NCBI GenBank assembly: GCA_018895275.1
Contig: JAHIOQ010000032.1
Span: forward strand, 176 to 64,175
DNA length: 64,000 nt
Direction of reading: 5' to 3'
Source of the DNA: Candidatus Omnitrophota bacterium
Lineage (GTDB): Bacteria; Omnitrophota; Gorgyraeia; B26-G9
Below are positions 4,147 through 64,000 of this stretch, piece by piece (the stretch's first letter is position 1; each line of letters starts with the position of its first letter). The notes under the pieces are model-generated. The model ran no database searches, was not told the origin of the DNA, and saw only the letters and a list, made by a program, of their open reading frames with translations. A program made the translations under genes and the position numbers.

Positions 4147-4180
4147 AATTCGAGTTAAAAAAACAGGCTCCTGTAAGTTT

Positions 4181-4224: not shown

Positions 4225-4400
4225 CGACACTTCCATTTATAATTCTTGATATCCCATGTTTTCAACAATAATATCTGCTCTAAATCCCTCGTCAAACTTT
4301 ATGCCTTAATATTAAATTTACACATGTAACTCATGTAGAGAATGTAGAAGAGAAATATTTTGAGCCGGCTAATAAAATTAAAAAACTCCATTCCATAAAA

Positions 4401-4475: not shown

Positions 4476-4810
4476 TATCATTCTCCGTGTCTCTGCGTCT
4501 TTGTGTGATTATAATATTAAGTTTTTAAATGGGAATCGATGCTTTTTTCTTCTCTCTTGTCCTTCAATGCCTTATATCTTTTCTTTCAATTCATTTAAGA
4601 ATGGACCGCAAAGACAATAATGTTGGCTAATTAGCACAACAGTTGTTTATAAAAATGGACAGAAATAGAGGGACGGAGCAAATATTATTAGTAGAAGTAA
4701 TAAAAGTTAAAACATTAGGTATGTTTTTAAACAAATTTAATTGCTTTAATTTTATATCGTTATAAATATGAACAGATAAAAAATAAAAAAACGCCTTGCT
4801 GCATTGTTTT

Positions 4811-4826
4811 TGGCACAAAAAATGCT
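4811..4826 (+). promoter_or_regulatory. sigma-54 (-24/-12) type promoter upstream of the sugar transferase gene
   Basis: TGGCAC-AAAAAA-TGCT has exact consensus GG-to-GC spacing (G4812 to G4824 = 12 nt). It lies 66 nt upstream of ATG 4892, and a sigma-54 activator is encoded at 10691. Confidence 0.6.
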
Positions 4827-4891
4827 GATAAATGATACTAATACACTAATACACCTTTATTAGAGTTACAACAATAAAAGGAAGCGTAGGT

Positions 4892-5674
4892 ATGTTGAAC
4901 AAAATAGCAAGAGTACATCTTAAAATTCTGGTTTCTACGATTGCCGTTACTTTGCTGCTGGTGATTCCTAAGGTTATGGCTATGTCATCTTCACAAGAGG
5001 CCCTGGCGTTGCGGCCATATGGGGTTTTTGCGTTTTTATTCTGGCTTAGCGGGGTATCGCTTCGTTTTATACAGGCGCGCTTTTTACAGTTGAAACGCGG
5101 TTTTGATATTATGGTTGCTTCTATCAGTCTGATGATTACTTCCCCGATTATTGTGCTCGCGGCCTTGGGGATAAAGCTGTTTTCTCCCAAAGGTCCGGTG
5201 TTTTATTCCCAGTTAAGAGTCGGGGAGAACGGCCGGATATTTAAAATCTATAAATTGCGTTCTATGAAGCCTGATGCGGAGAACGGCACCGGCGCGATAT
5301 GGAGTTCCGGTGAGGCTGATCCGAGATTAATCCCGTTTATCGGAAGATTGATGAGGAAGGCGCATATAGATGAAATTCCGCAATTTTTCAATGTGCTAAA
5401 AGGCGAGATGAGTGTTGTCGGGCCGCGGCCGGAGCGTCCGGAGATAGTGAATATTTTAAAATATGAGATACCGGAATATGAGAAAAGATTGAGGGTAAAA
5501 CCGGGTATTACCGGGCTGGCGCAGGTAAGGAGCAGATATGACAAAACCCTGTCTGATGTGAAGAAAAAGGTGAAGCTTGACCTTTTATATATACGCAAGA
5601 TGTGTCTTTTTACGGAATTAAATATTATTTTTAAGACAGTGTTGGTTATTTTAACAGGTAAAGCGCTAGGTTAA
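4892..5674 (+). CDS. polyprenyl-phosphate sugar phosphotransferase (bacterial sugar transferase family; exopolysaccharide priming enzyme)
   Basis: Contains KRGFDIMVASISL..SPII TM, IDEIPQFFNVLKGEMSVVGPRPERPE and PGITGLAQV, all typical of the WbaP/EpsB-type C-terminal domain. Confidence 0.85.
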   Translation: MLNKIARVHLKILVSTIAVTLLLVIPKVMAMSSSQEALALRPYGVFAFLFWLSGVSLRFIQARFLQLKRGFDIMVASISLMITSPIIVLAALGIKLFSPKGPVFYSQLRVGENGRIFKIYKLRSMKPDAENGTGAIWSSGEADPRLIPFIGRLMRKAHIDEIPQFFNVLKGEMSVVGPRPERPEIVNILKYEIPEYEKRLRVKPGITGLAQVRSRYDKTLSDVKKKVKLDLLYIRKMCLFTELNIIFKTVLVILTGKALG

Positions 5675-5725
5675 AAAGGCATTGGTGCAAAGCTCTGGCG
5701 GATAGAAAAAAAAGTGGTGAGAAAG

Positions 5726-6424
5726 ATGAAAAAATTATTGGTTTTGATAATAATTATGGTATGGGGATTTATTGTCCCGCAATCAAGTTTTGCCGTTATT
5801 ATTATGGCTGATATCGCCAATTCCACGGCGGGGCTTGGCAATTTTGAAGGCACCCTTACCTACAGCGCGGGTAGTGCGACAAACGCGACGCTTGTGATTA
5901 GTTTAAAAAATACCAGTTCTTCAGGTGGTTATCTAACAGCGTTTGTATTGAATAATCCGTTTAATTCCATCTCTGGCATTCCTACCTGGTCGTTTACGAA
6001 TGAGGATTTTAATAAACTTTTTGTCAATGCTGGAATTAAAGGTGAACCTTATGGATATTTTGATATCGGCGCAAGTTTAGGGACAAATCTACACAGTAAT
6101 TTTGCCGATAATGGTCCTCCGACGAAAGGGATAGCTGCGGGTGTTACCGAGACATTCACTTTTAATTTGGCCGGCAGCGGCCTGGACGGATTAACAGAGC
6201 AGAGTTTTATCGACGCGCTTTCCACAGGGGGGAGTTCATATTACGGGCCGCAATTTTTTGTCGCGCGTTTTCGTGGCATACCTGTTGGCGAAGGCAGTGA
6301 TAAAGTTCCGGCAAAAACAAACGGAGAGCCTGTCCCTGAGCCGGCGACGATGTTGTTGCTTGGGCCGGCATTGATGGGATTAGCGGCTACCCGGAAAAAA
6401 ATAGTAAGCAGAGATGATCGGTGA
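5726..6424 (+). CDS. PEP-CTERM sorting-domain protein
   Basis: Signal peptide (MKKLLVLIIIMVWGFIVPQSSFA). C-terminus VPEPATMLLLGPALMGLAATRKK has the PEP motif, a TM segment and a basic tail. The ORF track starts at GTG 5714. Confidence 0.85.
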   Translation: MKKLLVLIIIMVWGFIVPQSSFAVIIMADIANSTAGLGNFEGTLTYSAGSATNATLVISLKNTSSSGGYLTAFVLNNPFNSISGIPTWSFTNEDFNKLFVNAGIKGEPYGYFDIGASLGTNLHSNFADNGPPTKGIAAGVTETFTFNLAGSGLDGLTEQSFIDALSTGGSSYYGPQFFVARFRGIPVGEGSDKVPAKTNGEPVPEPATMLLLGPALMGLAATRKKIVSRDDR

Positions 6425-6589
6425 GTTAGCACGTGTAAAAAAAATAATACAGGAATGACGCGAAGCACTCACTTTTTTAGATAGAACAATGGCCGTGAAT
6501 AAACACAGCGGCCCGGAATAACGTAAGAAGTAGTTAAATATTAAGCAAATGTAATAAATTTTATTAAGAAAAGGGGGTGAATTAGAAAC

Positions 6590-7210
6590 ATGAAAAGATT
6601 AATGTTAGCAGTTCTACTGGTAACAGGTGTAATTATGATGTCTCAACCGGCAATGGCCTTTACCTTTACGCTTAGTCCGGCTCAAATTCAACAGCTTTAT
6701 AAGACTTATGCTACGGGGGGAGCTGGCACAACAGTGTATGAGGTTGAGTCCCTATTTGACGGCGCAAAGTTTATCGGTAAAATCGCTAAAATCGGCGGTG
6801 GTAGTAGCGAGATACCGGAGATTTGGATTGGATCCACTGCGCTGGGGATTAGTGATTTAAGCGGGTTTGACGCGTACGCGTTAAATATCGGTAATTGGAA
6901 TGAAAATACATGGGAATATTGTCTATACTTAAACGCCGGAGGTTCGCCGGTGCAAAGCGGATGGACAGCAATACCGGTTGGCAGTTCTGCGGGTTTAATG
7001 CTGAATCTTACTACAGTATCAGGGTTAAATAATATCTCTGATATAGGTTTTTGTATTCGTGGTAAGGTTCCGCTTGGAACTCCCCGAAACCCTGATTATA
7101 CCTTTGAAACAGTAGTTGCTCCTGTTCCCGAACCGGCAACTATGTTATTGCTCGGGCCGGCATTGTTGGGATTAGCGGGTTTGAAGAGAAAAAAGAGTTC
7201 GTGCGCTTAA
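6590..7210 (+). CDS. PEP-CTERM sorting-domain protein
   Basis: Signal peptide (MKRLMLAVLLVTGVIMMSQPAMA). C-terminus VPEPATMLLLGPALLGLAGLKRKK. A strong RBS (AAGGGGGTG) precedes the start. Confidence 0.88.
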   Translation: MKRLMLAVLLVTGVIMMSQPAMAFTFTLSPAQIQQLYKTYATGGAGTTVYEVESLFDGAKFIGKIAKIGGGSSEIPEIWIGSTALGISDLSGFDAYALNIGNWNENTWEYCLYLNAGGSPVQSGWTAIPVGSSAGLMLNLTTVSGLNNISDIGFCIRGKVPLGTPRNPDYTFETVVAPVPEPATMLLLGPALLGLAGLKRKKSSCA

Positions 7211-10690: not shown

Positions 10691-11884
10691 ATGAGCCGAA
10701 TTTACACCCAGGATTCGGATGGGAGGGTAGTCATGAGAACACATATCTTAGTTACTGATGAGGATAAACAGATAAAAATGATTATAGATAAAATAACGGA
10801 TGGTAACGCCAAAAACTTCGGGGATAAAACAAATACATGTTTTGAAGGAAAACGTAAGTTGCCTTTTGATATGCAGCGCCATAAGTTTCATACCGTAATC
10901 GGTAAAGATGAGAAGATGCAGAAGATTTATTCCATGATTGAAGCAATTGCCGATACTCCTTCAACGGTAATGATTTGCGGAGAAAGCGGTACGGGTAAAA
11001 GAATGATCGCGCAGGCCATCCATCAGGCGGATACGTACCGCTGCAATAAGCCGTTTATTGAAATAAGCTGCGGGGCGCTGCCGGAGACGCTTTTGGAAAG
11101 TGAACTGTTCGGCCATGTTAAGGGCGCCTTTACCGGAGCGATTAAAGATCGGGCCGGCAGATTTGAGCTCGCGAACGGAGGAACTTTATTACTGGATGAG
11201 ATCGATACATGCTCGCCGAGTTTGCAGGTTAAATTACTGCGGGTATTGGAAGAAGGCGGGTATGAACGGGTGGGGGATACAAGGACGTTTAAATCCGATG
11301 TGCGGATTATCGCGGCAACGAATCAAAATCTTGAAGAGCTTGTAAAAAGGAAGAGCTTTCGCGGGGATTTGTTCTGGAGGATTAATGTGATAAGTATTAA
11401 TTTGCCTCCGTTACGGGAGCGCCCGGGAGATATCTCGCTGCTCGCGAGTCATTTCCTGAATAAATATAACCTGATGCGTAAGCCGCGCAACGGAATGTTT
11501 ATTGAAAATGTTTCAGAGGAAGCAATGCAGGCGATGATGCTGTATTCATGGCCGGGAAATATCCGGGAACTGGAAAACACGATTGAAAGAGCGTGTATTT
11601 TGGTTAACACCAATACGATCCAATTGAAAGATTTGCCGGATTCAATCCGCAATAACAGCTGCCCGCTCAAAGAGGAAGCTTCGAAGAGCAGTTTTTCTTT
11701 AAAAGACGCTCTGAAGCACCCGGAAAGGGATATCGTGATTAATGCTCTGGAGCATACGAATTGGAATTGTACGAGAACCGCGGCGTATCTGGGCATTAAC
11801 CGTACGACACTCTACAATAAGATGAAGCTTTACAATATAAAGCGAAGCAAGGAAAAAGGATTTGACGGCAACGGTAATTTTTAG
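10691..11884 (+). CDS. sigma-54-dependent transcriptional activator (bEBP) lacking a full receiver domain
   Basis: AAA+ core with Walker A GESGTGKRM, the sigma-54 contact motif GAFTGA, and ELENTIERA. C-terminal Fis-type HTH (TRTAAYLGINRTTLYNKMK). The N-terminal region is only about 80 aa, with a vestigial HILVTDEDK string. Confidence 0.88.
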   Translation: MSRIYTQDSDGRVVMRTHILVTDEDKQIKMIIDKITDGNAKNFGDKTNTCFEGKRKLPFDMQRHKFHTVIGKDEKMQKIYSMIEAIADTPSTVMICGESGTGKRMIAQAIHQADTYRCNKPFIEISCGALPETLLESELFGHVKGAFTGAIKDRAGRFELANGGTLLLDEIDTCSPSLQVKLLRVLEEGGYERVGDTRTFKSDVRIIAATNQNLEELVKRKSFRGDLFWRINVISINLPPLRERPGDISLLASHFLNKYNLMRKPRNGMFIENVSEEAMQAMMLYSWPGNIRELENTIERACILVNTNTIQLKDLPDSIRNNSCPLKEEASKSSFSLKDALKHPERDIVINALEHTNWNCTRTAAYLGINRTTLYNKMKLYNIKRSKEKGFDGNGNF

Positions 11885-30901: not shown

Positions 30902-30977
30902 TGGTGGAGCTGGGGGGATTCGAACCCCCGACCAACAGACTGCCAGCCTGCTGCGCTCCCAGCTGCGCTACAGCCCC
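30902..30977 (-). tRNA. tRNA-Ala (anticodon GGC), CCA encoded
   Basis: The reverse complement is GGGGCTGTAGCGCAGCTGGGAGCGC...CTGGCAG...GGGGGTTCGAATCCCCCCAGCTCCACCA. The G3:U70 identity pair is present. Confidence 0.92.
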
Positions 30978-35243: not shown

Positions 35244-35543
35244 ATGAGTCTAATTGTAAGAAAATTATTTAGACATGGCGGCAGTTACGCGATAGATTTA
35301 CCAATGGAATTTATTAAGAATGCAGGTACACTTGAGGTTATTTTAGAGAGTACGCCGAATAGATTAAGCATTCGTCCTAAAACAGAATTAGATAGTATTG
35401 AATCAGACCCTCTGTTTGCTGAATTTATTAATGCGTTGACAGTTGATGCAATGAAACATCCGGAAAAACTTCATGAAGCAAAGAAGGTTTGGGATAAAGA
35501 ATGGGATGAGCTTCTTAAGGGGGTTACTGTTGATGAAGAGTAA
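35244..35543 (+). CDS. prlF: PrlF/SohA-like AbrB-fold antitoxin
   Basis: 99 aa. The N-terminal KLFRHGGSYAIDLPMEF looks like a swapped-hairpin motif. It sits upstream of, and overlaps, a YhaV-like ORF. Confidence 0.6.
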   Translation: MSLIVRKLFRHGGSYAIDLPMEFIKNAGTLEVILESTPNRLSIRPKTELDSIESDPLFAEFINALTVDAMKHPEKLHEAKKVWDKEWDELLKGVTVDEE

Positions 35544-35979
35544 CTACCTCTTGAAATACCACGATTTTTACTTCCTGCGTATAGCCAAACTAAAAGAGCA
35601 AGTAAAAGAGCTGCGTAATAAACTTAGTAATGAAGCATTCAGGCAACACGAAATTGTAAAGCTTGCTTATCGCATTCGTGAAGCTGATCAAGAAATTATT
35701 CCCCAGGATCCAAACCGGCCGGAATATCGCCTGACTGGCAATCTTAAAAAATATCGCCGTTATAAACAAGGCCTACAACGCTATAGGCTGTTTTTTTGTT
35801 TTGCAAATCAGCCTAAGATTATTCTATATCTATACCTGAATGATGAAAGGCATTTGCGCAAGGCCGGGGACAGGAATGATCCCTATGAAGAATTTAGTCG
35901 CCTTGTAGATAAGGAATGCTTTTCACACAAGCCTGATGACCCCAAAATCCAGAAGTGGATAAAAAGTTATCGTCCATAA
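35533..35979 (+). CDS. yhaV: YhaV-family type II toxin (ribonuclease)
   Basis: EYRLTGNLKKYRRYKQGLQRYRLFFCFANQPKIILYLYLNDERHLRKAGDRNDPYEEFSRL matches the YhaV pattern as I recall it. The start is taken at the ATG overlapping the antitoxin end. Confidence 0.65.
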   Translation: MKSNYLLKYHDFYFLRIAKLKEQVKELRNKLSNEAFRQHEIVKLAYRIREADQEIIPQDPNRPEYRLTGNLKKYRRYKQGLQRYRLFFCFANQPKIILYLYLNDERHLRKAGDRNDPYEEFSRLVDKECFSHKPDDPKIQKWIKSYRP

Positions 35980-36007: not shown

Positions 36008-37477
36008 ATGAAACCACTGATATTTTTAGTATGTTTAATTTTAATCATAGAGAATATCTCCATAGCTCAACCGCTTGCTCAAAACCACTTAAGAGTAAAG
36101 ATAACCGTTCCTTATCCGTATTCCCTGATCAGAGGTGATGTCCCCATCTATGGAGTTGCCTGCGGCGAAGGTTTTAAAGAATATAAATTGGAATACGGCG
36201 AGGGAGAGAACCCTCAAGCATGGAAGCTTATCGTTAAGTCTGAGAAGCCTCAATTAGAAGAGAACAGCTGGCCTAAAGTGGATTTTTCCCTGGACAAAAC
36301 AATCCCGGGTAATTTGGGGGTTTGGGATACGGGTTTAAGTGAATATGAATATGGAAAACATTTGGTTGACCTGCCAATGGGGACTTATACCTTAAAATTG
36401 ACCGTTAGCAGTCGTTCCGGAGATATAAAAGAGGACCGGGTGGTGGTAGAGGTAGGCCGGGTGGTGTTAAATGCTTTTAGCAGTAAACTGGAAAGTATTG
36501 ATGCTAAAGCAGATTTATTGATCCAGGAACATTCGTTACAAAGCGCTGCGGGGGTTTTTTCCTTAAAGCCTTTGAACATAAAAGCCGAAGGCATTCCCCA
36601 GGGATATAGATTGATTGGGGATGTTTATGAAGTCAATCCTCCGGGAGAGAAATTTACCCGGAAGGCACAATTGGCGATTGTGTATGATAAGTCAAAAGTT
36701 TCTAATGCGGAGAATCTGGGTATTTTTGTTTTTAATCCTGAGATAAATGATTGGCAGTATTTGGAGACTTTTTGTGATGAAAAAACAGACCGATTGGAGG
36801 CGGAGATAGATTCTTTGCCGGAGAAATTTGCGGTTTATGCGGTATTTGAGGCTAAAACGATAAACAATAGGATTAGTCAAAAGGAACAACTAAAGGTTGC
36901 TGAGCCGATCAGTCCTGTTTTAGCTAATGATACCTTTGAAAACGGGTTAGACCAGTGGAAAAATAAACATGGCGCGGCAGGCGCGGTTTTAGAGTTGGAT
37001 AGCAAACAGAATAAAGATAAGGGTTATTGTTTAAAAATAATAGATAGAAATGGAGGAGGGAATTTTGCTTCTCTTATAAGAAGCGAACCTTTTGATGCGC
37101 GGATATACATAATAGTAAAATTTGACTACAGAATCGACAAGGATGTTAAAACCAATTTTTTAGTAAAGGTAAATAATAAATGGTATGACATTGTTTTTAC
37201 CGATGATGAAAAAGTCTACTGGGATATTAATATGGAAAAGATCGGAGAAATTGCCGGGGTAATTGCCGATAATCGATGGCATTGCGCGGAACTTAATCTT
37301 TATGAAATGCTGAGGTCATATACGGATGAGTTTATCGTCCAGGAAATGGTTATGGCCGACTGGGATTCTACCGGGTTTAAGAAACTCGAATTTGGGCATA
37401 ACCCTAAAGGAGCAACGTATTATATCGATAATTTTGAGATAAAATCCGGAGCTAAATCTTATATATGGTGTTTCTGA
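36008..37477 (+). CDS. secreted protein of unknown function (signal peptide; Ig-like and CBM-like regions), probably truncated by a frameshift
   Basis: 489-aa ORF with signal MKPLIFLVCLILIIENISIA. A segment FAVYAVFEA resembles the HFSMYVVAG segment of the 823-aa protein. Confidence 0.7.
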   Translation: MKPLIFLVCLILIIENISIAQPLAQNHLRVKITVPYPYSLIRGDVPIYGVACGEGFKEYKLEYGEGENPQAWKLIVKSEKPQLEENSWPKVDFSLDKTIPGNLGVWDTGLSEYEYGKHLVDLPMGTYTLKLTVSSRSGDIKEDRVVVEVGRVVLNAFSSKLESIDAKADLLIQEHSLQSAAGVFSLKPLNIKAEGIPQGYRLIGDVYEVNPPGEKFTRKAQLAIVYDKSKVSNAENLGIFVFNPEINDWQYLETFCDEKTDRLEAEIDSLPEKFAVYAVFEAKTINNRISQKEQLKVAEPISPVLANDTFENGLDQWKNKHGAAGAVLELDSKQNKDKGYCLKIIDRNGGGNFASLIRSEPFDARIYIIVKFDYRIDKDVKTNFLVKVNNKWYDIVFTDDEKVYWDINMEKIGEIAGVIADNRWHCAELNLYEMLRSYTDEFIVQEMVMADWDSTGFKKLEFGHNPKGATYYIDNFEIKSGAKSYIWCF

Positions 37478-54122: not shown

Positions 54123-56162
54123 ATGAACATGGAATTTAAAAAGTGGGAAAAACCGCCGAAGGGCTCAAAAGAAGAAAAAGACATAGTGGATTTAATTAAA
54201 GCATTTATTTCTGCTCTGAAAAAAATTCCTCTTTACCCGGCTACACATCCGATGGTTACAGAATCGGTCTTGAAGCTTTTTCTCGGCCTGGGCGCTTTTT
54301 TTAAATCTTATGGTGATTTTAGCCTGGATGTTTTTGAAGATAAGATTTTAATTTGCGAAGAGTCATTGGATGAATTGCAAAACCTGGCAAAAGATCTTGT
54401 TCAGGAATTCAAAAAGATATCGGTTGTCGGAGTGACCTTTGTGAACGGCCTGAATGAAGCCGAACTTGAAAGCTTTCTCAAACTGCTTATGCTTAAACCG
54501 GAAGTGATTGTTCAGAGAGGCGGGATGAAGCAGATCCTTGAACAGGAACATATCGAACACATAGTCCTAAATGAAGTCCGTTTTGCCCGCATAAAAGAAG
54601 AAGAGGAGATCGTTAAGAAGGATGAAAAAGGGGGGTCAGGTTTAGGCACTGAAGCAGGCGGCACAGCCGCAGCTGCGGATCAAGAGCAAAAAGATAACGA
54701 TATTGTTGCCAGGGTAAGCGATTTCTTTACGGGCAAGTCGGATGCAGTGCCGGACAAAGAAGTTATTTCGTATCAGTTTAAGAAAAATACCCGCCGCCTG
54801 GTTAAGCAGATATTAAAATTGATCGGGCCGGAAAAGGCGGTGGAAGAGGTGCTGAAAATTATTGAAGAGCGGTTTCAAAAGGCCGGGTTTACGGAAGAAG
54901 AGCAGGATGTCCTGGTGGAAAAATTAAATATGGAAACCATACGCCTGAAACAGCCCAAGGTGACTAAAAAAGATTTAGAAAAAGAGCTGAAGCTCTTAAG
55001 GGAAGAAAATTCCGTGTTTAAAGTAAAGTTGAATCAGACGGAGGGACTGATAGAGGCGGCGGTTAAAAAATCTACGGAAGAGATGGTTCAGGAAAATCGG
55101 AAGATTAAGCGCGAAAAACAGCGTATTAATTCTGTTTTGCGCCATGTCGCGGAAGGCCTGGTGATTATTGATAATGACGGCAAAGTGCTGCTGCTCAATC
55201 CGGCGGCGGAAGAGTTGTTCGGCGTAAGTAAAGAAAATAAAATCGGACAGCATATTTTGGAAGGGCTGCAGGAAGGACAGATGGTGAGCCTTTCCAAGGA
55301 TAAACATCAGGAGTTTGAGATAGAATTGGCCGGCTCGGATGAAAAGACGAAAAAGACTTTGCGCGCCAGTAATGCGGTTATCGAAAGCCCGGAAGGTGAA
55401 ACGATTGGTGTGGTTTCGGTTTTGAGCGATATTACCAAGCAAAAAGAACTGGAACGCATGAAAGATACGTTTGTATCTAATGTTACGCATGATTTGCGCG
55501 CGCCGCTTATTTCTATTCAAAAGAGTATATCGCTTATTTTAGAATCGGCAAAAGAGCCCCTGCCTCAAGAGCAAAAACAGTTCCTGGAGATTGCCAATAA
55601 TAGCGCCACCCGCTTAATGGGTCTTGTCAATGACCTGCTTGATGTGGCAAAGCTGGAGGCCGGGCGCGTGCCTTTGGAGTATACGCACGTGTCTTTGCCT
55701 AACGTGGTCGAAAGCGTTTTTAGCACGCTTTCGGTCTGGGCCGGCAGCCGGGGTGTGGAGTTAAAAAAAGAAGGATTGGAATCGCTAGAATTCGACGCGG
55801 ATGAAAAGCTGCTTAATCAGGTATTTACCAATCTTGTCGGTAATGCGATAAAATTTACGCCGGCCGGCGGCAGTGTTGCGATAAAAGCGGAGAAGGCGGA
55901 TAAGGAAGTGAAGATTTCCGTTATCGATACCGGATGCGGTATTCCTGCCGATAGCCTGGGGCGTATTTTCGAAAAGTTCGAACAAACCAGGGCAATACCG
56001 GTCGGTAATGCCCCGAAAGGCTCAGGCCTGGGGCTGGCGATCGTTAAGGATATTGTGCAATTGCACGGGGGAAAGGTTTGGGCTGAAAGTGAAGTGGGCA
56101 AAGGAAGCGCGTTTATCTTTATGATTCCGCAGCAAAAAGAGGTGCTTGATATTCGTGACTGA
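54123..56162 (+). CDS. cytoplasmic sensor histidine kinase (N-terminal unknown domain, coiled coil, PAS, HisKA, HATPase_c)
   Basis: PAS LRHVAEGLVIIDNDGKVLLLNPAAEELFG, H-box FVSNVTHDLRAPL, N-box NLVGNAIKFT, and G-boxes DTGCGI and GSGLGLAIV. Confidence 0.88.
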   Translation: MNMEFKKWEKPPKGSKEEKDIVDLIKAFISALKKIPLYPATHPMVTESVLKLFLGLGAFFKSYGDFSLDVFEDKILICEESLDELQNLAKDLVQEFKKISVVGVTFVNGLNEAELESFLKLLMLKPEVIVQRGGMKQILEQEHIEHIVLNEVRFARIKEEEEIVKKDEKGGSGLGTEAGGTAAAADQEQKDNDIVARVSDFFTGKSDAVPDKEVISYQFKKNTRRLVKQILKLIGPEKAVEEVLKIIEERFQKAGFTEEEQDVLVEKLNMETIRLKQPKVTKKDLEKELKLLREENSVFKVKLNQTEGLIEAAVKKSTEEMVQENRKIKREKQRINSVLRHVAEGLVIIDNDGKVLLLNPAAEELFGVSKENKIGQHILEGLQEGQMVSLSKDKHQEFEIELAGSDEKTKKTLRASNAVIESPEGETIGVVSVLSDITKQKELERMKDTFVSNVTHDLRAPLISIQKSISLILESAKEPLPQEQKQFLEIANNSATRLMGLVNDLLDVAKLEAGRVPLEYTHVSLPNVVESVFSTLSVWAGSRGVELKKEGLESLEFDADEKLLNQVFTNLVGNAIKFTPAGGSVAIKAEKADKEVKISVIDTGCGIPADSLGRIFEKFEQTRAIPVGNAPKGSGLGLAIVKDIVQLHGGKVWAESEVGKGSAFIFMIPQQKEVLDIRD

Positions 56163-57939
56163 TTTTGCCGTAATAAACGATTTTCTTTTAGAAGTGCAGA
56201 AACCGGCGCGCTATATTGGCAGTGAATTCAATAGCGTTCATAAGCATCTGACGCCGGATATGATTCATTTTGCCGTGTGTTTTCCCGATGCCTATGAAAT
56301 CGGGATGAGCCATCTGGGTTTAAAGATAATTTATGATATCCTGAACCGGCAGGATGATGTTTTTTGCGAGCGTTGTTTTACTCCCTGGACGGATATGGAG
56401 CAGCAGCTTCGCCGGCGCGGTATCCCTTTGTTTGGACTGGAAAGCAAGACGCCCTTGTCGGAATTCGATATTATCGGTTTTTCCCTGCAGTATGAACTTG
56501 GCTATACAAATGTCCTGAACATGCTCAATCTGGCAAACATTCCTTTGTCTTCGCGTGAACGGCTGCGCCATCCGCTGGTTATTGCCGGAGGGCCTTGCTG
56601 TTATAACCCGGAACCGTTATCCGAATTTATTGATGTTTTTTTTCTCGGCGAAGCGGAGGATATGCTGCTTGAGTTTACGGCGCTTTACCGCACTTTTAAA
56701 AATAACACGGCTGCCTTAGAGAAAAATGATGATGCGGCTTACGCAAAGGAGAAAGAAAATTTTTTAAGGCAAGCGGCAGGGATCGAAGGTTTATACCTGC
56801 CGCGTTTTTACGAATACCGGCAAGCCGGCGGCAAGGGGTTTTGCCGTATCCCGCTTTTTCCGGAAGCCGCGGCAAAGATTAAACGCCGTTTTCTGGATTC
56901 GTTGGAAAATAACGATTACGCTACTTCGCCGCCGGTACCGTTTATTGAAGTGGTGCATGACCGCATAAACCTGGAGATAATGCGGGGCTGCCCTAACCGC
57001 TGCTTGTTCTGTCAGGCGGGATTTACGATGAATCCGGTGCGTGTCCGCAGCGTGGAAAAGGTGCGCCGGATGGCGGAGAAGACGTGGCGTGCTACCGGCT
57101 ATGATACCCTTTCGTTCTGCGCGCTTTCCAGCGCGAGCTATCCGTATCTTAAAGAGCTGATAATGAGCCTGCACGCATTTTGCGCGGAAAGAGGCCTGGG
57201 TATATCTTTGCCGTCATTAAGAATCGATAAAGAGTTTTTGGGAATAATCTCCATGTTGGGAGAGCTGAAAAAAACCGGACTGACTTTTGCCCCGGAAGCG
57301 GGCAGTCTGCGTTTGCGTAAAGTGATTAATAAAAATATTGACGTGGGGGAATTGAAAGAAGCGGTGCTTGAGGCATATCGTGCCGGATGGCGGCGGCTGA
57401 AACTTTACTTTATGATTGGGCTTCCCACGGAAACGGAAGAGGATTTGCTCTGCATGATAAATTTGATCGAAGAGTTTTCCTCTCTGCGTAAAGCGATAGA
57501 CGGCCGGCGCGGAAAGGTCAGTATCGGTATCTCCAATTATATACCGAAACCGCATACTCCGTTTCAATGGCTGGGGATGGATGATATGAGCAGCTTGTCC
57601 GCAAAACAGGAATTCCTGCGCCGTCGTTTAAGCGGCAAATATCTTGATGTAGACTTTCATAATGTTCGGATGAGTTACGTGGAAGCATACCTTTCCCGTG
57701 CGGACCGTTCTGCCGCGGCCGTGATAAAAAAAGCCTTTGAAAACGGCGCGCGGTTCGATGCCTGGACAGATAAATTTAATTTTAATATTTGGATGGATGC
57801 ATTCCGGCAGGCGGAAATTGCTCCGGACTACTTTGTGCATAAGCATCACGATTTTCAAGCTTGCCTGCCGTGGGAGCACATCGACTGCGGGGTCCGGCGT
57901 CAGGCCCTGCAGGAGAGTTGTGTCAAATCCGGTGTTTGA
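56146..57939 (+). CDS. B12-binding-domain radical SAM protein (TIGR03960-like)
   Basis: VQKPARYIGSEFN start pattern and the CxxxCxxC motif in LEIMRGCPNRCLFCQAG. The start is TTG 56146 or GTG 56155. Confidence 0.8.
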   Translation: MIFVTDFAVINDFLLEVQKPARYIGSEFNSVHKHLTPDMIHFAVCFPDAYEIGMSHLGLKIIYDILNRQDDVFCERCFTPWTDMEQQLRRRGIPLFGLESKTPLSEFDIIGFSLQYELGYTNVLNMLNLANIPLSSRERLRHPLVIAGGPCCYNPEPLSEFIDVFFLGEAEDMLLEFTALYRTFKNNTAALEKNDDAAYAKEKENFLRQAAGIEGLYLPRFYEYRQAGGKGFCRIPLFPEAAAKIKRRFLDSLENNDYATSPPVPFIEVVHDRINLEIMRGCPNRCLFCQAGFTMNPVRVRSVEKVRRMAEKTWRATGYDTLSFCALSSASYPYLKELIMSLHAFCAERGLGISLPSLRIDKEFLGIISMLGELKKTGLTFAPEAGSLRLRKVINKNIDVGELKEAVLEAYRAGWRRLKLYFMIGLPTETEEDLLCMINLIEEFSSLRKAIDGRRGKVSIGISNYIPKPHTPFQWLGMDDMSSLSAKQEFLRRRLSGKYLDVDFHNVRMSYVEAYLSRADRSAAAVIKKAFENGARFDAWTDKFNFNIWMDAFRQAEIAPDYFVHKHHDFQACLPWEHIDCGVRRQALQESCVKSGV

Positions 57940-58002
57940 CTTAGTTTAAGATATATGTTATATTCATTCAAGTAATAACTTATCAGGAAAAACAGGTGAT
58001 AT

Positions 58003-59073
58003 ATGGCATCTAATATAGAAAAATTACTTAATATTATGCTGGAAAAAGGGGGCTCGGATTTACATATCCACGCGGAAACTTTTCCTATAGTAAGAATTAA
58101 TGGTAAATTGACGGCAGTTGAAAAGGATGTCTTGTCTGCGGAAGACTCGAAAAAACTGGTTTATGCTTTGCTGAATGAAACGGAAATAAAAATTCTGGAA
58201 AAAAGAAAAGAGCTGGATAAAGGCTTTTCTCTTGAGGATAAAGGGCGGTTTCGTTTAAATGCGTTTTACCATAGAGGGGCGGTATGTGCGGCAATCCGCT
58301 CCGTACCGTTGACGGTACCTGATTTTAAGACATTGGGGCTGCCGGAAGAACAGATGGCAAGTATCTGCAGAAGCAAAAGCGGGCTGGTGTTGGTTACAGG
58401 AGCAACCGGGGTAGGGAAAACCACCACGCTGGCGTCAATTGTTGACCGGATTAATGCCGAACGTTACTGTCATATTATAACAATCGAGGATCCCGTCGAG
58501 GTTGTGCATAAAAACAAAAAGAGTATTATTACCCAGAGAGAAGTGGGAAATGATACGCTTGGTTTTGGCCCTGCCCTAAAGTATATATTGCGTCAGGATC
58601 CGGATGTCATTCTTATTGGTGAAATGCGTGATTTTGAGACAATACAGGCGGCGCTTAATATCGCTGAAACCGGGCATTTGGTATTTGCCACATTACATAC
58701 TACGGATTGTGTGCAGACAATTAACCGAATTATCGACGTTTTTCCGGGGTCTCAACAGTCACAGGTACGCACGCAGCTTTCCTACGTTTTGTTGGCGACC
58801 ATTTCTCAACAGCTGCTGCCAAAGACGGACTCTAGCGGCCTGTGTTTAGCGGTGGAGATAATGGTTTCCAACTTTGGAGTCAGGACGATGATTCGGGAAG
58901 ATAAAATTCATCAGATATTTTCTATGATTCAAACCGGGCAGAAAGAAGGCATGAAGACAATGAACCAATCCTTGTTCGAACTTTACCGTGAGGGGAAAAT
59001 CAGCTATCAGGAGGCTTCATTGCATGTGAGTGATCTTGAAGATTTCAAGCGTTTTTTTAAAGATGGAAGGTAG
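58003..59073 (+). CDS. pilT: type IV pilus retraction ATPase PilT (copy 1)
   Basis: GGSDLHI, Walker A GATGVGKTTT, Asp box ITIEDPVE, Walker B ILIGEMRD, and His box GHLVFATLHT. Confidence 0.9.
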   Translation: MASNIEKLLNIMLEKGGSDLHIHAETFPIVRINGKLTAVEKDVLSAEDSKKLVYALLNETEIKILEKRKELDKGFSLEDKGRFRLNAFYHRGAVCAAIRSVPLTVPDFKTLGLPEEQMASICRSKSGLVLVTGATGVGKTTTLASIVDRINAERYCHIITIEDPVEVVHKNKKSIITQREVGNDTLGFGPALKYILRQDPDVILIGEMRDFETIQAALNIAETGHLVFATLHTTDCVQTINRIIDVFPGSQQSQVRTQLSYVLLATISQQLLPKTDSSGLCLAVEIMVSNFGVRTMIREDKIHQIFSMIQTGQKEGMKTMNQSLFELYREGKISYQEASLHVSDLEDFKRFFKDGR

Positions 59074-59121: not shown

Positions 59122-59520
59122 ATGAGCGAAGAAACGAAGGTTCTGCTTGTTGATGATGACGTTGATTTTATCAATATGATGCAGTATTGGCTGAAGAGCC
59201 GGAAATTTAACGTGGATGTTTTATATAGCGGCGAGCACGTTATCGAGTGGGTTAAGACCAATAATTATCATATTATCTTTCTTGATTTAAAGCTTCCGGG
59301 GGCAGACGGTATTGAAATCCTGCGGCAAATCCGCAGTTTCAGCAAGATGCCGGTTATCATTTTCAGCGCATACGGCACCAAAGAGAGCCTGCATCAAGCC
59401 ACCCAGCTCGGTATTTCGGGCTTTTTTGCGAAAGAAAAGGGGTTTGAGGAGGCCGCACGGCTTATCTATACGGCATTAAGAATTCATAAAGGGTTGTCAA
59501 CAGAGGAAAAAAGAGGTTAA
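59122..59520 (+). CDS. single-domain response regulator (CheY-like receiver)
   Basis: VLLVDDDVDF, IIFLDLKLPGADG and the conserved K region VIIFSAYG. Confidence 0.88.
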   Translation: MSEETKVLLVDDDVDFINMMQYWLKSRKFNVDVLYSGEHVIEWVKTNNYHIIFLDLKLPGADGIEILRQIRSFSKMPVIIFSAYGTKESLHQATQLGISGFFAKEKGFEEAARLIYTALRIHKGLSTEEKRG

Positions 59521-59521: not shown

Positions 59522-60586
59522 ATGGCAATAGAGATGGCGAAATTATTACAGTTGCTTATTGAAAGAAAAGGCTCTGACTTGCATCTGGGCGCGAATTCTC
59601 CGCCGTATTTGCGAATTGATGAAAACCTTGTGCCCGCGGACCCGGCGGTTCTTTCGACAACAGAAGTGCGGGAACTGATTTATAGCCTTTTGTCTCCGGA
59701 AGAAGTGGAGATATTCGAAAGAGAGAAGGAATTGGACCGGTCTTTTGAAGTGGAAGGCCTGAGTCGGTTTCGTATGAACATATTTTTTCAGCGCGGATAT
59801 GTAGGGGCGGCGCTGCGCGTGATTCCGTTTAAGATTTCGACATTTTCCGAGTGCGGCCTGCCGGTAAAGGTTATTACGGAGCTTTCCCGTAGGCCGAAAG
59901 GGCTGGTACTTGTAACCGGGGCTACCGGTTGCGGTAAGTCAACGACCCTGGCTTCGATTGTTGATAAAGTTAACGACGAACGCCAGTGCCATATTATCAC
60001 CGTGGAAGATCCGATAGAATTTGTTCACCGCAATAAGAGAGCGGTTATCGACCAGCGCGAGGTCGGACAGGATACCAAGACTTTTGCCAGGGCCTTGAAG
60101 TATGTATTGAGGCAGGATCCCGATGTGATTCTCATCGGCGAAATGAGAGATATGGAGACCATAGAGGCGGCGCTTACGATTGCGGAAACCGGCCATCTGG
60201 TTTTTGCCACGCTGCATACTTCCGATGCGGTACAGACGATAAACCGGATTATCGATGTATTTCCTTCGCATCAACAGCAGCAGGTGAGGACACAGCTTTC
60301 CTTTGTGTTATTGGGAATCCTTTCTCAACAGTTGATTCCGAAAGTCGGAGGCGCAGGCCGCGTGCTGGCTTTGGAGGTTATGGTGGCAACGGCTGCGTTA
60401 AAAAGTATGATTCGGGAACAGAAAGGCCACCAGATTTATTCGATTATTCAAACCGGACAGAAAGAGGGCATGGTCACGATGAATCAGTCTCTGTGCGATC
60501 TTTACGTGCGTAAACTGATTTCTTATGAACATGCCATAGGCCGGTCAATGGACCCGGATGATCTTATTCGGCTTTTAAAGAAGTAA
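59522..60586 (+). CDS. pilT: type IV pilus retraction ATPase PilT (copy 2)
   Basis: GSDLHL, GATGCGKSTT, ITVEDPIE, ILIGEMRD and GHLVFATLHT. Confidence 0.9.
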   Translation: MAIEMAKLLQLLIERKGSDLHLGANSPPYLRIDENLVPADPAVLSTTEVRELIYSLLSPEEVEIFEREKELDRSFEVEGLSRFRMNIFFQRGYVGAALRVIPFKISTFSECGLPVKVITELSRRPKGLVLVTGATGCGKSTTLASIVDKVNDERQCHIITVEDPIEFVHRNKRAVIDQREVGQDTKTFARALKYVLRQDPDVILIGEMRDMETIEAALTIAETGHLVFATLHTSDAVQTINRIIDVFPSHQQQQVRTQLSFVLLGILSQQLIPKVGGAGRVLALEVMVATAALKSMIREQKGHQIYSIIQTGQKEGMVTMNQSLCDLYVRKLISYEHAIGRSMDPDDLIRLLKK

Positions 60587-60616: not shown

Positions 60617-61231
60617 ATGGCTGTAAAAAAATCAAAAACCAAGCAATTAGGCAATATGTTAATTGAAAAGAACCTGCTTACCCAGGAGCAGCTTGATGCC
60701 GCTCTGGAGGTTCAGCTTAAAGAAGGGGGGCTGCTGGGGCAGATTCTTGTTAAGCTTGGTTTTGTTACGAAAGAACAGATAGAAAACAGCATTTCGGAAC
60801 AAACGGATAGCGCGCAGAAACTGGAGAATGTCTTGATGGAGATGGGCATTATTTCCTCTGAGCAACTGGTCCAGGCGAAGGAAATTCAAAATAAACAAAG
60901 TGGGCTCCTGTCGAAGATTTTAATCAACCTGGGATTTCTTAGTGAGGAGGATTTGGTAAGCAACATGGTAACTCAATTCGGGTTTCCTTATTTGCAATTG
61001 ACGAATTACGAGATTGATGCTGAAATCGTAAAATTGGTGCCCAAAGAAACTGCCTTGAAATATTATCTTATTCCTATCGATCAAATCGGAAATATTCTCA
61101 CGCTGTCCATGGCGGATCCTCTCAATGCTGCCGCGCAGGACGAAATCAGGAAGATAACTGCGCTAAATGTTGAAACATTTATTTCTACCTTTTCTGATAT
61201 TAATAATGCGATTGAAAAGTATTACGTATAA
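60617..61231 (+). CDS. standalone GspE/MshE N-terminal domain protein with four MshEN-like 24-residue motifs and no ATPase domain
   Basis: Four motifs: QLGNMLIEKNLLTQEQLDAALEVQ, LLGQILVKLGFVTKEQIENSISEQ, KLENVLMEMGIISSEQLVQAKEIQ and LLSKILINLGFLSEEDLVSNMVTQ. Then T2SSE_N-like FGFPYLQL..LIPIDQIGNILTLSMADPLN. Confidence 0.75.
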   Translation: MAVKKSKTKQLGNMLIEKNLLTQEQLDAALEVQLKEGGLLGQILVKLGFVTKEQIENSISEQTDSAQKLENVLMEMGIISSEQLVQAKEIQNKQSGLLSKILINLGFLSEEDLVSNMVTQFGFPYLQLTNYEIDAEIVKLVPKETALKYYLIPIDQIGNILTLSMADPLNAAAQDEIRKITALNVETFISTFSDINNAIEKYYV

Positions 61232-61256: not shown

Positions 61257-62972
61257 ATGGTTCAAAGTGTAATAGAGAAAATGCTCGAAGTCTTAACCCG
61301 GTCCAACTTTCTTACCAAGGAGCAGTTGGATGAGGCGATTGAAACGCAGCATAAAACCGGCCGGCGTTTGAGCGAAGTATTGACGACGATGGGGTACATC
61401 AGCCAAAAGGACCTCGTTATCGTTTTCAGCCAGAGCCTGCGTATCCCGCCGATAAATCTCGCGAAAATTAAGATAGACCCGGAGGTCGCTAAAATCGTTT
61501 CGCGGCTTACGGCGGAGAAATATCAGGTGATACCGGTTTCGCGCATCGGTAAAGTCTTGACGATAGCCATGGTTGATCCGCTCAATATCCTGGCCATAGA
61601 TGAATTAAAAGTACTTACTAATTATGAATTGAAAGTAGTTGTTGCCGGCGAAGCGGAAATGAAGGCGGCCATCGATAATTACTATAGCGTATCGACGAAT
61701 GAACAGCTCCGCGGATTTATAGATAATGTAAAAGATATGGGACTGGAGATTATAGAGGAAAAAGAAGCGCCGGAGGTGTCCGTAAATACGCAGCAGCTGC
61801 TTCGGGACATTGAAGGCGCGCCGGTTGTAAAAGTTACGAATATGATACTTACCGACGCGATAAAAAAACAGGCGAGTGATATTTTGATTGAACCGCAGGA
61901 AAAGAAACTGCGCTTGAGGTATCGTCTCGACGGAATTCTGCAGGAATTTCCGCCGCCGCCGAAATCGATGCAGGAAGCAATTGTTTCGCGTATTAAGGTT
62001 ATGTCGGTTTTGAATATTGCCGAGCATCGGTTGCCGCAGGACGGCAGGTTTAAAATAAAGATACATGACCGTGAAGTTGATTTTCGCGTTTCGATTATGC
62101 CCACAAGCCACGGAGAAAAAGTCGCGCTGCGTGTTTTGGATAAGGCCGTAGTAGTGCTGGACATAGATAAAATGGGATTTGAGGCCGAACCGCTTAAAAA
62201 TATCAAAGAAATTTCGCTTGAGCCGCATGGTATGATATTGGTTTGCGGCCCGACCGGCAGCGGAAAATCAACCACGCTTTACAGTATTCTTAAGTATGTG
62301 GACGATCCGGAAAAGAATATATGTACTGCGGAAGATCCGGTCGAATACCAGCTGGCGGGAGTGAACCAGGTCAACGTGCATCCTGAGGTGGGGTTCACGT
62401 TTGCTTTGGCCCTGCGCTCATTTCTGCGCCAGGACCCCGATGTGATCATGGTCGGTGAAATCCGCGACGTGGAGACGCTGGATATCGGGATTAAAGCGGC
62501 GCTTACCGGGCACCTGGTCTTAAGTACACTGCATACAACCGAGGCGGCGGGCGCGGTGACCAGAATGGTAAATATGGGGATTGAGCCGTTTCTGATTACT
62601 TCTTCCTGCCTTTTAATCTGCGCGCAGCGTTTGATACGAAAACTTTGCCCCTTTTGCAAAAATGCCTATGCCATAACTGCGGAGATAAGGGAAAAATTCA
62701 GGATTACCGGTGAGTTTAAAGAATTGTACCGGGCGAAAGGCTGCCCGAAATGCGAAAATACCGGGTATCGCGGCAGAATCGGCCTATGCGAGGTTTTAGT
62801 CCTGACCCCGGCGGTTAGAGATTTGATTATGCAGCGGGCGCAGGAAAACGAGCTTAAGGCACTGGCGCGCAAAGAAGGCATGAGCACCTTGCGGGAAAAC
62901 GGAGTTACCAAGGCATTGAAAGGTATTACAACGTTAGAAGAAATTACCCGGCTGACGGTTGCGGACAGCTAA
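61257..62972 (+). CDS. pilB: type IV pilus assembly ATPase PilB/GspE family (copy 1)
   Basis: N-terminal MshEN-like motifs, Walker A GPTGSGKSTT, EDPVEYQL, IMVGEIRD, GHLVLSTLHT, and a tetracysteine CPFC..CPKC. Confidence 0.9.
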   Translation: MVQSVIEKMLEVLTRSNFLTKEQLDEAIETQHKTGRRLSEVLTTMGYISQKDLVIVFSQSLRIPPINLAKIKIDPEVAKIVSRLTAEKYQVIPVSRIGKVLTIAMVDPLNILAIDELKVLTNYELKVVVAGEAEMKAAIDNYYSVSTNEQLRGFIDNVKDMGLEIIEEKEAPEVSVNTQQLLRDIEGAPVVKVTNMILTDAIKKQASDILIEPQEKKLRLRYRLDGILQEFPPPPKSMQEAIVSRIKVMSVLNIAEHRLPQDGRFKIKIHDREVDFRVSIMPTSHGEKVALRVLDKAVVVLDIDKMGFEAEPLKNIKEISLEPHGMILVCGPTGSGKSTTLYSILKYVDDPEKNICTAEDPVEYQLAGVNQVNVHPEVGFTFALALRSFLRQDPDVIMVGEIRDVETLDIGIKAALTGHLVLSTLHTTEAAGAVTRMVNMGIEPFLITSSCLLICAQRLIRKLCPFCKNAYAITAEIREKFRITGEFKELYRAKGCPKCENTGYRGRIGLCEVLVLTPAVRDLIMQRAQENELKALARKEGMSTLRENGVTKALKGITTLEEITRLTVADS

Positions 62973-63169: not shown

Positions 63170-64000
63170 ATGCATAAAGGGAGAAAACGTCTAAACGAAC
63201 TTTTGCTGGATTATAACCTGATTGATGCAAAAGATGTCAGCCGGGCATTGGCGTTACATCATAAAAAGGGCGGACAGCTGGCGACAATACTGGTTGAAGA
63301 GGGGTTTGTTAAGGAGGAGGATATTGTTAATTGCTTCTGCCGTTACTTAAATATTCCTCCGATCAATCTCTCAAAATTTAAAGGCAGAGAAGAAATAATT
63401 AAGATCATCCCTGAGCATGTAGCGCGCCACTATCGCTTGATATGTGTTTCGCAGACAGGAAACATGCTCACCGTGGCTATGAGCGACCCTTTAAATGTGC
63501 TGGCCATAGATGATATTAAGGCCCTCACCGGCTACGACATCACCCCGGTTGTTGCGCCTCTCAATGATATCAGTACCGCTATAGACCGCTTTTATCATCA
63601 TAAGGAAGAAGCAAAAGCAAGCGGGTCTTTGGGTGATCTTGTTAAGGAGATTTCCGATGAGGATATTCAAATCGTAAAAGAGCAGGAGCAAATAGACATC
63701 GGCGAAGTAATCCGTTCCAGTTCGGAAGCGCCGATTGTCAAAATGATTGATGCCTTGATAGCCGAAGCCTTGATAAAACGCGCTTCCGATATACATATAG
63801 AGCCGTATGAGACGGATATTCGCATACGGTATCGGATTGACGGGTCATTGAGCGAAGCGGTGCGCCTGCCGAAAAAGGTACAAAATGCGATAACCGCGCG
63901 CCTGAAAATAATGTCGAATATGGATATTACACAGCGGCTTATCCCTCAGGACGGAAGATTTAAGGTCAAGCTGGAAGAAAAAGAGGTTGATTTTCGCGTT
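63170..64000 (+). CDS. pilB: type IV pilus assembly ATPase PilB/GspE family (copy 2, 3' end outside the window)
   Basis: Not in the ORF track because it is open to the window edge. My translation is MHKGRKRLNELLLDYNLIDAKDV...LTVAMSDPLNVLAIDDIK...ASDIHIEPYETDIRIRYRIDG...IPQDGRFKV. A GGAAGGGAG RBS is present. Confidence 0.85.
   Translation, partial: MHKGRKRLNELLLDYNLIDAKDVSRALALHHKKGGQLATILVEEGFVKEEDIVNCFCRYLNIPPINLSKFKGREEIIKIIPEHVARHYRLICVSQTGNMLTVAMSDPLNVLAIDDIKALTGYDITPVVAPLNDISTAIDRFYHHKEEAKASGSLGDLVKEISDEDIQIVKEQEQIDIGEVIRSSSEAPIVKMIDALIAEALIKRASDIHIEPYETDIRIRYRIDGSLSEAVRLPKKVQNAITARLKIMSNMDITQRLIPQDGRFKVKLEEKEVDFRV

Follow-up and report, generated by a model that had tools for sequence, protein, structure and literature searches.

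The gene at positions 60617–61231 of the stretch analysed here, a 64,000-nucleotide segment of contig JAHIOQ010000032.1 of the Candidatus Omnitrophota assembly GCA_018895275.1 (the whole of which is referred to as the window), encodes a 204-residue protein which, on balance, is likely to be a free-standing receptor for cyclic di-GMP (c-di-GMP) of the MshEN family and a dedicated partner of the type IV pilus extension motors of the Omnitrophota. The evidence lies in the domain anatomy of the protein, the conservation of its residues, the purifying selection on its gene and the linkage of that gene to pilB. The Omnitrophota are ultra-small, putatively predatory or parasitic bacteria, and their pili are thought to act in attachment to the host or prey. 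The main value of the finding is not the presence of four motifs in one protein but the phylum-wide separation of sensor and motor to which it points.

Domain architecture of the stand-alone protein

The open reading frame (ORF) is intact, with an ATG at 60617, 204 codons and a stop codon at 61229–61231; an alternative in-frame GTG at 60602 would add five residues, and the orthologues begin at the ATG. Its sequence is shared, at 100% identity, by a 'hypothetical protein' from a metagenome-assembled genome (MAG) of Candidatus Omnitrophica. A preliminary description, made from the DNA letters alone, had proposed four 24-residue repeats of the MshEN type followed by a T2SSE_N domain and lacking any ATPase, and on this arrangement the ORF, Pfam, NCBIfam and AlphaFold2/Foldseek agree. 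The repeats occupy residues 10–33, 39–62, 68–91 and 97–120, are separated by three spacers of five residues each (LKEGG, TDSAQ and NKQSG) and form two bundles, module A (motifs 1 and 2) and module B (motifs 3 and 4). The expected match to Pfam T2SSE_N (PF05157, now named MshEN; cutoff 23 bits) was obtained on residues 121–203, with an E-value of 5.7e-18 and 65 bits, and the NCBIfam model NF053729 ('c-di-GMP_motif, MshE-related'; 53 residues, cutoff 38 bits) matches the protein twice with 94 bits summed, module A alone scoring 64.5 and module B alone 43.8 bits. The T2SSE ATPase domain (PF00437) was not found in the 204-residue protein by Pfam, whereas it scores 468 bits in PilB-1, which is encoded immediately downstream; as judged from its sequence, the protein is not a member of the PilB/GspE/MshE secretion ATPases. 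Pfam likewise found no PilZ, EAL or GGDEF domain in it, and its resemblance to PilB cofactors of the PilZ/FimX type is one of logic only.

In the AlphaFold2 model, a monomer built from 38 sequences with a mean pLDDT (predicted local distance difference test) of 83, eight helices are arranged in two bundles (residues 11–17, 23–36, 40–46 and 52–64, and residues 69–75, 81–94, 98–104 and 110–121), followed by an α/β domain, the T2SSE_N1 or MshEN_C domain (hereafter the N1 domain). The linker between the two bundles (residues 62–66) is of low confidence, and the N1 domain has a pLDDT of ~90 or higher. The top Foldseek matches in the PDB are the N-terminal domain of MshE with c-di-GMP (5HTL, E 1e-9), GSPII-A and GSPII-B of PilF, the PilB(N)–PilZ complex of X. 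citri and XpsE-N, and the N1 domain has target-normalised TM-scores of 0.62–0.81 to 5HTL, 9G1W, 2D28 and 7LKM.

A single predicted c-di-GMP-binding site

Motif conservation in the four-motif form was read from an alignment of 42 orthologues, and a wider comparison was made with 80 loci, the best 80 of 593 related stretches from GTDB species representatives, nearly all of which are labelled as Omnitrophota or PVC/Planctomycetes MAGs. Because these loci were picked by similarity to the stand-alone MshEN protein, the presence of the gene in them is by construction, and only its linkage, its conservation and its motif pattern are informative.

In MshEN domains, the terminal Gln of the motif (position 24) forms hydrogen bonds to ribose and phosphate, and the Arg at position 1 stacks on guanine. 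The backbone NH of the Gly at position 3 contacts the Hoogsteen edge of guanine, and in the MshE variants G11L and G40I binding is poor at best (PMC5013675); where this residue is Ala, as in a PilF GSPII-A construct, the affinity is 10–30-fold lower (PMC12002112). In module A, none of the 42 orthologues departs from G12, G41, Q33 or Q62, and L26 and L30 show little or no variation. Motif 1 follows the pattern Q-[LI]-G...L...L..Q with the Gly, L6, L21 and Q24 invariant, motif 2 follows the pattern L-L-G...Q with L1, the Gly and Q24 invariant, and the hydrophobic triads at positions 2, 17 and 21 (L11/L26/L30 and L40/I55/I59) are kept as Leu, Ile or Val. In module B, motif 3 (K-L-E...) has an invariant Glu (E70, 42/42) at the Gly position and an unconserved position 21, where the window protein has Lys and the family as a whole varies; in motif 4 (x-[FL]-[AST]...) the Gly position is occupied by Ala, Ser or Thr in 36/42 orthologues and by Gly in none (S99 in the window protein). 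The window protein has all four terminal Gln residues, Q33, Q62, Q91 and Q120, and each is kept in 42/42 orthologues except Q91, which is kept in 25/42. The alignment to NF053729 runs over model positions 1–53 for module A and over positions 4–48 only for module B, and the nonsynonymous divergence (dN) of module B is the highest among the three regions of the protein.

Since only module A keeps both Gly and Gln, one c-di-GMP site is predicted per protein, not two, with module A as the sole plausible site and module B as, probably, a non-binding copy. The earlier picture of a doubled, four-motif c-di-GMP binder is thus correct as to the number of repeats and finds no support in repeats 3 and 4, which lack the position-3 Gly; the conservation of the binding residues on alignment, on which that picture had been made to depend, holds for motifs 1 and 2 and breaks down in motifs 3 and 4.

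Position 1 of the motif departs from the canonical Arg. Motif 1 has Gln here (37/42 orthologues, 55/80 loci) and motif 2 has Leu (42/42 orthologues, 78/80 loci), the latter being inside the extended consensus. GSPII-B of PilF, with Lys and Leu at position 1, binds c-di-GMP at 6 nM and led to a widening of the consensus to (R/K/L)LG, and a hydrophobic residue at this position has been suggested to predict very high affinity (PMC11731258); the Leu of motif 2 in module A is of the same type. Binders with yet other residues at position 1 are PA14_29490 (PLG) and Bd2402 (FLG), and the absence of Arg at this position need not in itself be disqualifying. Ser at position 1 abolished binding in the PilF GSPII-A construct.

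Compared with module A, module B gives an alignment score of 108 with 21/53 identical residues, against 86 for PilB-1 and 84 for PilB-2. Being nearer to module A than to either PilB N-terminus, it is most readily taken as an internal duplicate that has since diverged. The gain of module B from the N-terminus of PilB-1 by recombination was considered and ruled out by this closer match. The invariant Glu70, which does not drift, suggests a retained function, and the protein might then be a receptor for another ligand such as 3'3'-cGAMP (3'3'-cyclic GMP-AMP), or a dual receptor in which module B binds a second ligand; a Gln in place of the Arg of position 1 is indeed unusual, and MshEN is reported also to bind cGAMP (PMC5013675). 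However, neither the window nor the loci showed a CD-NTase or cGAMP gene, the neighbours that were found belong to the HD-GYP and GGDEF families, and module B has lost L21 of motif 3 and often Q24 and evolves fastest, which looks like decay under structural constraint. A different ligand is accordingly rated as quite improbable.

Loss of the signature from the neighbouring PilB motors

The survey of pil clusters for ATPase-less MshEN proteins that had been suggested earlier gave a uniform result: in 80/80 loci the stand-alone gene, encoding 145–215 residues, is directly upstream of pilB, at a median distance of 18.5 nt and a minimum of −50 nt. A second, tandem pilB is present in 71/80 loci, and the other nine end inside or just after the first. 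In the window, PilB-1 starts 25 nt past the stop codon of the stand-alone gene, carries its own N-terminal MshEN-like domain and is matched by Pfam T2SSE (E 1.8e-140, 468 bits, residues 188–565), by Pfam MshEN and by TIGR02538 (639 bits).

When the N-termini of the stand-alone protein, PilB-1 and PilB-2 (n = 67) from the 80 loci were aligned to one hidden Markov model, the stand-alone protein was found to have the Gly of motif 1 and that of motif 2 in 80/80 sequences, and the Gln in 79/80 (motif 1) and 80/80 (motif 2). In PilB-1 the Gly is present in 0/80 (motif 1) and 3/80 (motif 2); the Gln of motif 1 is kept in 77/80, and at the corresponding position of motif 2 Gln is outside the five commonest residues (mostly Gly). 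In PilB-2 the Gly counts are 0/67 and 7/67, and the Gln counts 52/67 and 23/67, for motifs 1 and 2, respectively. As read from this alignment, the signature is retained on the small protein and lost almost entirely from both motors. The PilB of P. aeruginosa, in which Ser replaces both glycines, has been listed as a protein that experiments showed not to bind. Because both putatively co-transcribed PilB paralogues have lost the c-di-GMP signature, the stand-alone protein would supply the c-di-GMP input in trans.

PilB-1 (50.4 bits) and PilB-2 (42.6 bits), like module B, score above the 38-bit cutoff of NF053729 without the glycines, compared with 64.5–67.7 bits for intact bundles, so that a match to the model alone is no sign of a binding site. 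The NCBIfam cutoff was therefore rejected as a discriminator of binding, all modules being above 38 bits, and it may serve as a rule of annotation that a c-di-GMP_motif match is not equal to a binding site.

The tandem pilB–pilB arrangement is itself a constant of the type IV pilus clusters of the Omnitrophota, for which a heterohexamer, or alternative motors as in PilB/TfpB, are candidate reasons.

Two accounts derive the gene from a pilB. The reading frame stops where a PilB would enter its ATPase domain, and a truncated third pilB, with an ATPase remnant detectable downstream, had been named in the preliminary description as an alternative. No such remnant was found, since the pilB that follows is complete and has its own N-terminal domain; moreover, a gene of 145–215 codons of stable length stands in the same place in 80 species and is under purifying selection, with a ratio of dN to synonymous divergence (dS) of 0.06–0.22 where dS is estimable and, against the four closest loci, a dN of ~0.2 with dS saturated in most comparisons. 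The pseudogene was rejected on these grounds and is given next to no credence. The second account, gene fission, would have split an ancestral (MshEN)2-T2SSE PilB and would make the protein the detached first N-terminal domain of PilB-1, kept as a constitutive, non-covalent subunit of the hexamer instead of a regulated cofactor, which would be compatible with c-di-GMP binding. ATPases of the (MshEN)2-, (MshEN)3- and (MshEN)4-T2SSE types exist, many proteins with multiple MshEN stretches are among the best matches of an exhaustive search, the gene is in every case followed by pilB, at a very short distance or with an overlap, and PilF of Thermus also mixes binding and non-binding GSPII domains. 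However, none of the 80 loci showed a fused Omnitrophota form, there are paralogues at a distance from pilB and others 3' of pilB-2 (L038 and L065), and the N1 domain of the stand-alone protein is equally distant from PilB-1 and PilB-2, being ~37% identical to the N1 domain of each. Fission is thus regarded as unlikely.

Two-motif and four-motif forms

The window protein is, by its sequence, one lineage's version of a two-motif protein found across the Omnitrophota. The short, two-motif form of 145–153 residues is encoded in 67/80 loci, the orthologue of Ca. Velamenicoccus archaeovorus (L073), for instance, having 149 residues, and the four-motif form of 202–215 residues was found, among the loci, only in L001–L005 besides the window. 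The one bundle that the short form has aligns best with module A of the window protein (mean score 136, versus 103 for module B). Four-motif stand-alone proteins with all four Gly residues intact occur in other lineages (P0045, P0046, P0124, P0129 from L005, and P0195), which makes the degenerate second bundle a feature of the clade of the window. Two-motif, four-motif-intact and four-motif-half-degenerate variants thus all exist and provide a natural experiment for comparison. At E ≤ 1e-3 the exhaustive search returned 17,516 clusters, and proteins of 145–260 residues are numerous in the best 150, from which it follows that stand-alone MshEN proteins are common but unstudied.

Two variants were noted in passing. 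P0089, a 290-residue protein encoded on a metagenome contig of 1.2 kb, joins a short-form sensor to a PilZ domain at the C-terminus, which has the RxxxR and NxSxxG motifs; the MshEN motif 2 of P0089 reads FLS, with Ser for Gly, as if sensing had been taken over by PilZ. At L038:6191–6643 and L065:5219–5752, a second stand-alone MshEN gene lies 3' of pilB-2, so that the pilB pair is flanked by two sensors.

Gene neighbourhood and c-di-GMP signalling genes

The features of the pilus ATPase cluster of the window are collected in Table 1.

Table 1. Genes of the pilus ATPase cluster and domains of the stand-alone MshEN protein (window positions)
Feature	Position	Strand	Description	Basis or detail
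PilT1	58003..59073	+	Second retraction-type ATPase, likely first gene of the operon	Pfam T2SSE
REC	59122..59520	+	Single-domain response regulator between the pilT genes	Pfam Response_reg, E 5.7e-25
PilT2	59522..60586	+	Retraction-type ATPase, 354 aa, without N-terminal MshEN	Pfam T2SSE; 30-nt gap to the sensor gene
Stand-alone MshEN gene	60617..61231	+	204 aa + stop	(MshEN_N)2 then T2SSE_N1, without ATPase
Module A (aa 10–62)	60644..60802	+	Motifs 1 + 2; predicted c-di-GMP-binding four-helix bundle	QLG..Q – LKEGG – LLG..Q
Module B (aa 68–120)	60818..60976	+	Motifs 3 + 4; degenerate internal duplicate, predicted non-binding	KLE..Q – NKQSG – LLS..Q
T2SSE_N1/MshEN_C (aa 121–203)	60977..61225	+	α/β domain	PF05157, AlphaFold2, Foldseek
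PilB-1	61257..62972	+	Complete type IV pilus assembly ATPase, 571 aa	Degenerate MshEN_N (MLE.. / RLS..)
PilB-2, 5' part	63170..64000	+	Runs off the window	Translation; degenerate MshEN_N (RLN.. / QLA..)

The best σ70-like site of the region (57936–57964; 10/12 matches, with TG) lies before pilT1, and no terminator-like sites were found in the intergenic gaps down to pilB-1. The order of genes in the window is mreBCD–PBP2–rodA, a PAS histidine kinase, a radical-SAM protein, pilT1, REC, pilT2, the sensor, pilB-1 and pilB-2; this order is common to L002–L004, where the REC gene is found in the same position, and pilC and pilin genes follow pilB-2 in L002 and L003. In the majority of loci with the short form, the order is radical-SAM, a HAMP-GAF-GGDEF-like gene, an optional pilT, the sensor, pilB and pilB. 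The radical-SAM protein (Radical_SAM_N2 + Radical_SAM; 56146–57939 in the window) was noted upstream of the pilus ATPase cluster in 53/80 loci.

Of the 63 loci that extend far enough beyond pilB-2, 21 carry a REC-HD-GYP (RpfG-like) phosphodiesterase gene no more than 300 nt past it, at a spacing of 2–86 nt and mostly less than 15 nt (e.g. L006:11964–13034 and L073:12262–13434). The HD and HHExxDGxGYP motifs are intact in 24 of the 26 HD-GYP homologues from all loci, including that of Ca. Velamenicoccus archaeovorus. Just upstream of the sensor or of pilT, about 60/80 loci encode a HAMP-GAF-GGDEF-like protein of ~475 residues (e.g. L006:6571–8010, L012:6541–7986 and L073:6504–7967). Intact GGDEF/GGEEF proteins are encoded in L045 and L076, and the REC-GGDEF of L076 sits where REC-HD-GYP is found elsewhere. 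Together, the HD-GYP and GGDEF-family neighbours and the PilZ fusion tie the cluster to c-di-GMP signalling. An Rfam scan of the window at gathering thresholds gave no riboswitch or other RNA near the gene, its only matches being of the tRNA type and elsewhere.

Other observations concern more distant parts of the window. One of the Rfam matches, at 30902–30977 (−; 76 nt), is to tmRNA with 48.1 bits against a gathering threshold of 47; as ARAGORN calls tRNA-Ala(GGC) at the same interval, a tRNA-like sequence has most likely been misassigned to tmRNA. Positions 3181–7210 encode an exosortase (EpsH), a sugar transferase and two small PEP-CTERM proteins, i.e. a PEP-CTERM/exosortase sorting cluster, and positions 10691–11884 contain a sigma-54 activator gene. 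A YhaV-family toxin, the endonuclease of a toxin–antitoxin pair, is encoded at 35473–35979 and adjoins an ORF of 489 residues (36008–37477) without a Pfam match.

Proposed mechanism and its alternatives

An ATPase-less MshEN protein in a pilT/pilB cluster is, as far as its sequence goes, best read as the free-standing c-di-GMP receptor or adaptor of the preliminary description, but with one binding site instead of two. The four-helix bundle of module A would take up one extended c-di-GMP molecule through the backbone amides of G12 and G41, the Leu/Ile clusters and Q33/Q62, giving a stoichiometry of 1:1. Module B may serve as a rigid spacer, blind to the ligand, that packs against the N1 domain in the way MshEN_N does in canonical domains, and the N1 domain may dock in a ligand-dependent manner onto the N-terminal ring of PilB or onto the PilM/PilC platform, by which pilus extension would be gated. 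This docking role is proposed by analogy with GspE-N1:GspL and PilB-N:PilZ, as the N1 domains of PilB/GspE ATPases are docking sites for partners, either platform proteins of the GspL/PilM type or, in Xanthomonas, PilZ.

Several observations weigh against the proposed receptor function. The Gln at position 1 of motif 1 is outside both the relaxed pattern [RKPN] and the extended one (R/K/L), and restoring the whole consensus in PilF GSPII-A gave binding only once inter-subdomain contacts and an N-cap had been removed as well (PMC12002112), so that conservation of the motif is not sufficient for binding. The A-site of nearly all of the upstream GGDEF-like proteins is degenerate (GDDEF, GDNEF, DDDEF, RDDKF and others), and in place of the RxxD I-site they have (T/S)E(V/I)D; they look like pseudo-cyclases, and with a degenerate A-site and no RxxD these genes are no evidence of local c-di-GMP synthesis and were rejected as local cyclases. 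The clade of the window has neither GGDEF-like nor HD-GYP neighbours and has pilT1–REC–pilT2 instead: a Pfam scan of 42 ORFs of the window gave no GGDEF, EAL or HD-GYP gene, and a search for the GGDEF motif in all six frames was empty. Furthermore, some paralogues are not beside pilB, such as P0046 (L081:8001–8750), which has four intact motifs and is near pilMNOPQ and rplU–rpmA–obg.

Some of these points would also fit a nucleotide-independent mimic of the PilB N1 domain, that is, a decoy or adaptor which competes for the PilM/PilC platform or bridges PilB and PilT and in which the repeats are structural. A perfect motif is no guarantee of binding, the clade of the window has no c-di-GMP enzyme gene nearby, the identity of the N1 domain to those of both PilBs is what a mimic would show, and the fold persists without a site in module B and in both PilB N-termini. 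However, at the ligand-contact positions the Gly is invariant in 80/80 loci and the Gln is near-invariant, yet the same positions drift in module B and the PilBs, and the HD-GYP linkage and the PilZ fusion point to c-di-GMP. Such a mimic is considered improbable, about as much so as the fission described above.

Returning to the c-di-GMP receptor, a wider scenario can be put forward tentatively, as a possibility that we find plausible without favouring it: the Omnitrophota may have moved c-di-GMP sensing from the extension ATPase to a separate, operon-encoded MshEN subunit serving two PilBs, with REC-HD-GYP and the pseudo-GGDEF protein completing a local module, and the second, ligand-blind bundle in the clade of the window may alter the coupling of the sensing bundle to the docking domain. 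As the proteins involved are small and soluble, the hypothesis is testable by isothermal titration calorimetry or pull-down without culturing Omnitrophota, and the outcome would bear on pilus regulation in these nanobacteria.

Comparison with known systems

The window protein shares with MshE of V. cholerae (5HTL) and with the PilB N-terminal domains of M. xanthus, C. perfringens (PilB2) and C. thermophilum the fold, the 24-5-24 arrangement followed by T2SSE_N1, the Gly, Leu and Gln residues of ligand contact and the setting in a type IV pilus system. In contrast to these domains, it is not fused to T2SSE, has Gln (motif 1) and Leu (motif 2) instead of Arg at position 1 and has one more helical module, which is degenerate and separates the binding bundle from the N1 domain. 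PilF of Thermus thermophilus, with GSPII-A, GSPII-B and GSPII-C (8PDK, 9G1W and 6F8L), likewise has tandem units, of which B binds at the affinity given above, C at ~0.3–0.5 µM and A is a degenerate non-binder; GSPII-C, which has three motifs, is the best full-length PDB sequence match to the window protein (E 7.7e-39). However, the units of PilF are in cis on the ATPase, each with its own N1 domain, whereas in the window protein only the bundle is duplicated, on a separate polypeptide.

ATPase-less c-di-GMP binders are known in PA3740 of P. aeruginosa (MshEN-xT2SSE_N1; dissociation constant ~30 nM) and Bd2402/CdgA of B. bacteriovorus (REC-MshEN_N; 0.04 or 0.4 µM), which are tied to surface motility or the prey-invasion pole. 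By their descriptions they are built from other domains than the window protein, and for neither has a place as the conserved first gene of a pilB operon been reported. The (MshEN_N)2 protein cce_1044 of Cyanothece is also small and stand-alone with a duplicated 53-residue bundle (Wang et al. 2016, Supplementary Table 4), but it is without T2SSE_N1 and no linkage to pilB is described. The architecture table of Wang et al. lists (MshEN_N)2 and MshEN-xT2SSE_N1 and does not list (MshEN_N)2-T2SSE_N1. As to the earlier remark that a doubled version detached from the motor was not known to be characterised, ATPase-less receptors had already been characterised and (MshEN_N)2 as such had been catalogued. 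Our literature search found no description of a stand-alone MshEN protein as a PilB cofactor or in the Omnitrophota, and a 2024 review of PilB cofactors mentions none.

To our knowledge, the route by which c-di-GMP reaches motors with non-binding N-terminal domains has been solved in only a few proteobacteria (FimX–PilZ). The FimX–PilZ–PilB system of Xanthomonas and Pseudomonas follows the same logic as that proposed here, in that a non-binding PilB N-terminal domain receives the signal in trans through a small docked protein (7LKM); the sensors, however, are unrelated, consisting there of a degenerate EAL domain with a PilZ adaptor and in the window of a copy of the PilB N-terminal domain. 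If the proposal is true, the stand-alone MshEN protein would provide a link between c-di-GMP and pilus extension that has not been described before, the third besides the MshEN domain intrinsic to PilB and FimX–PilZ.

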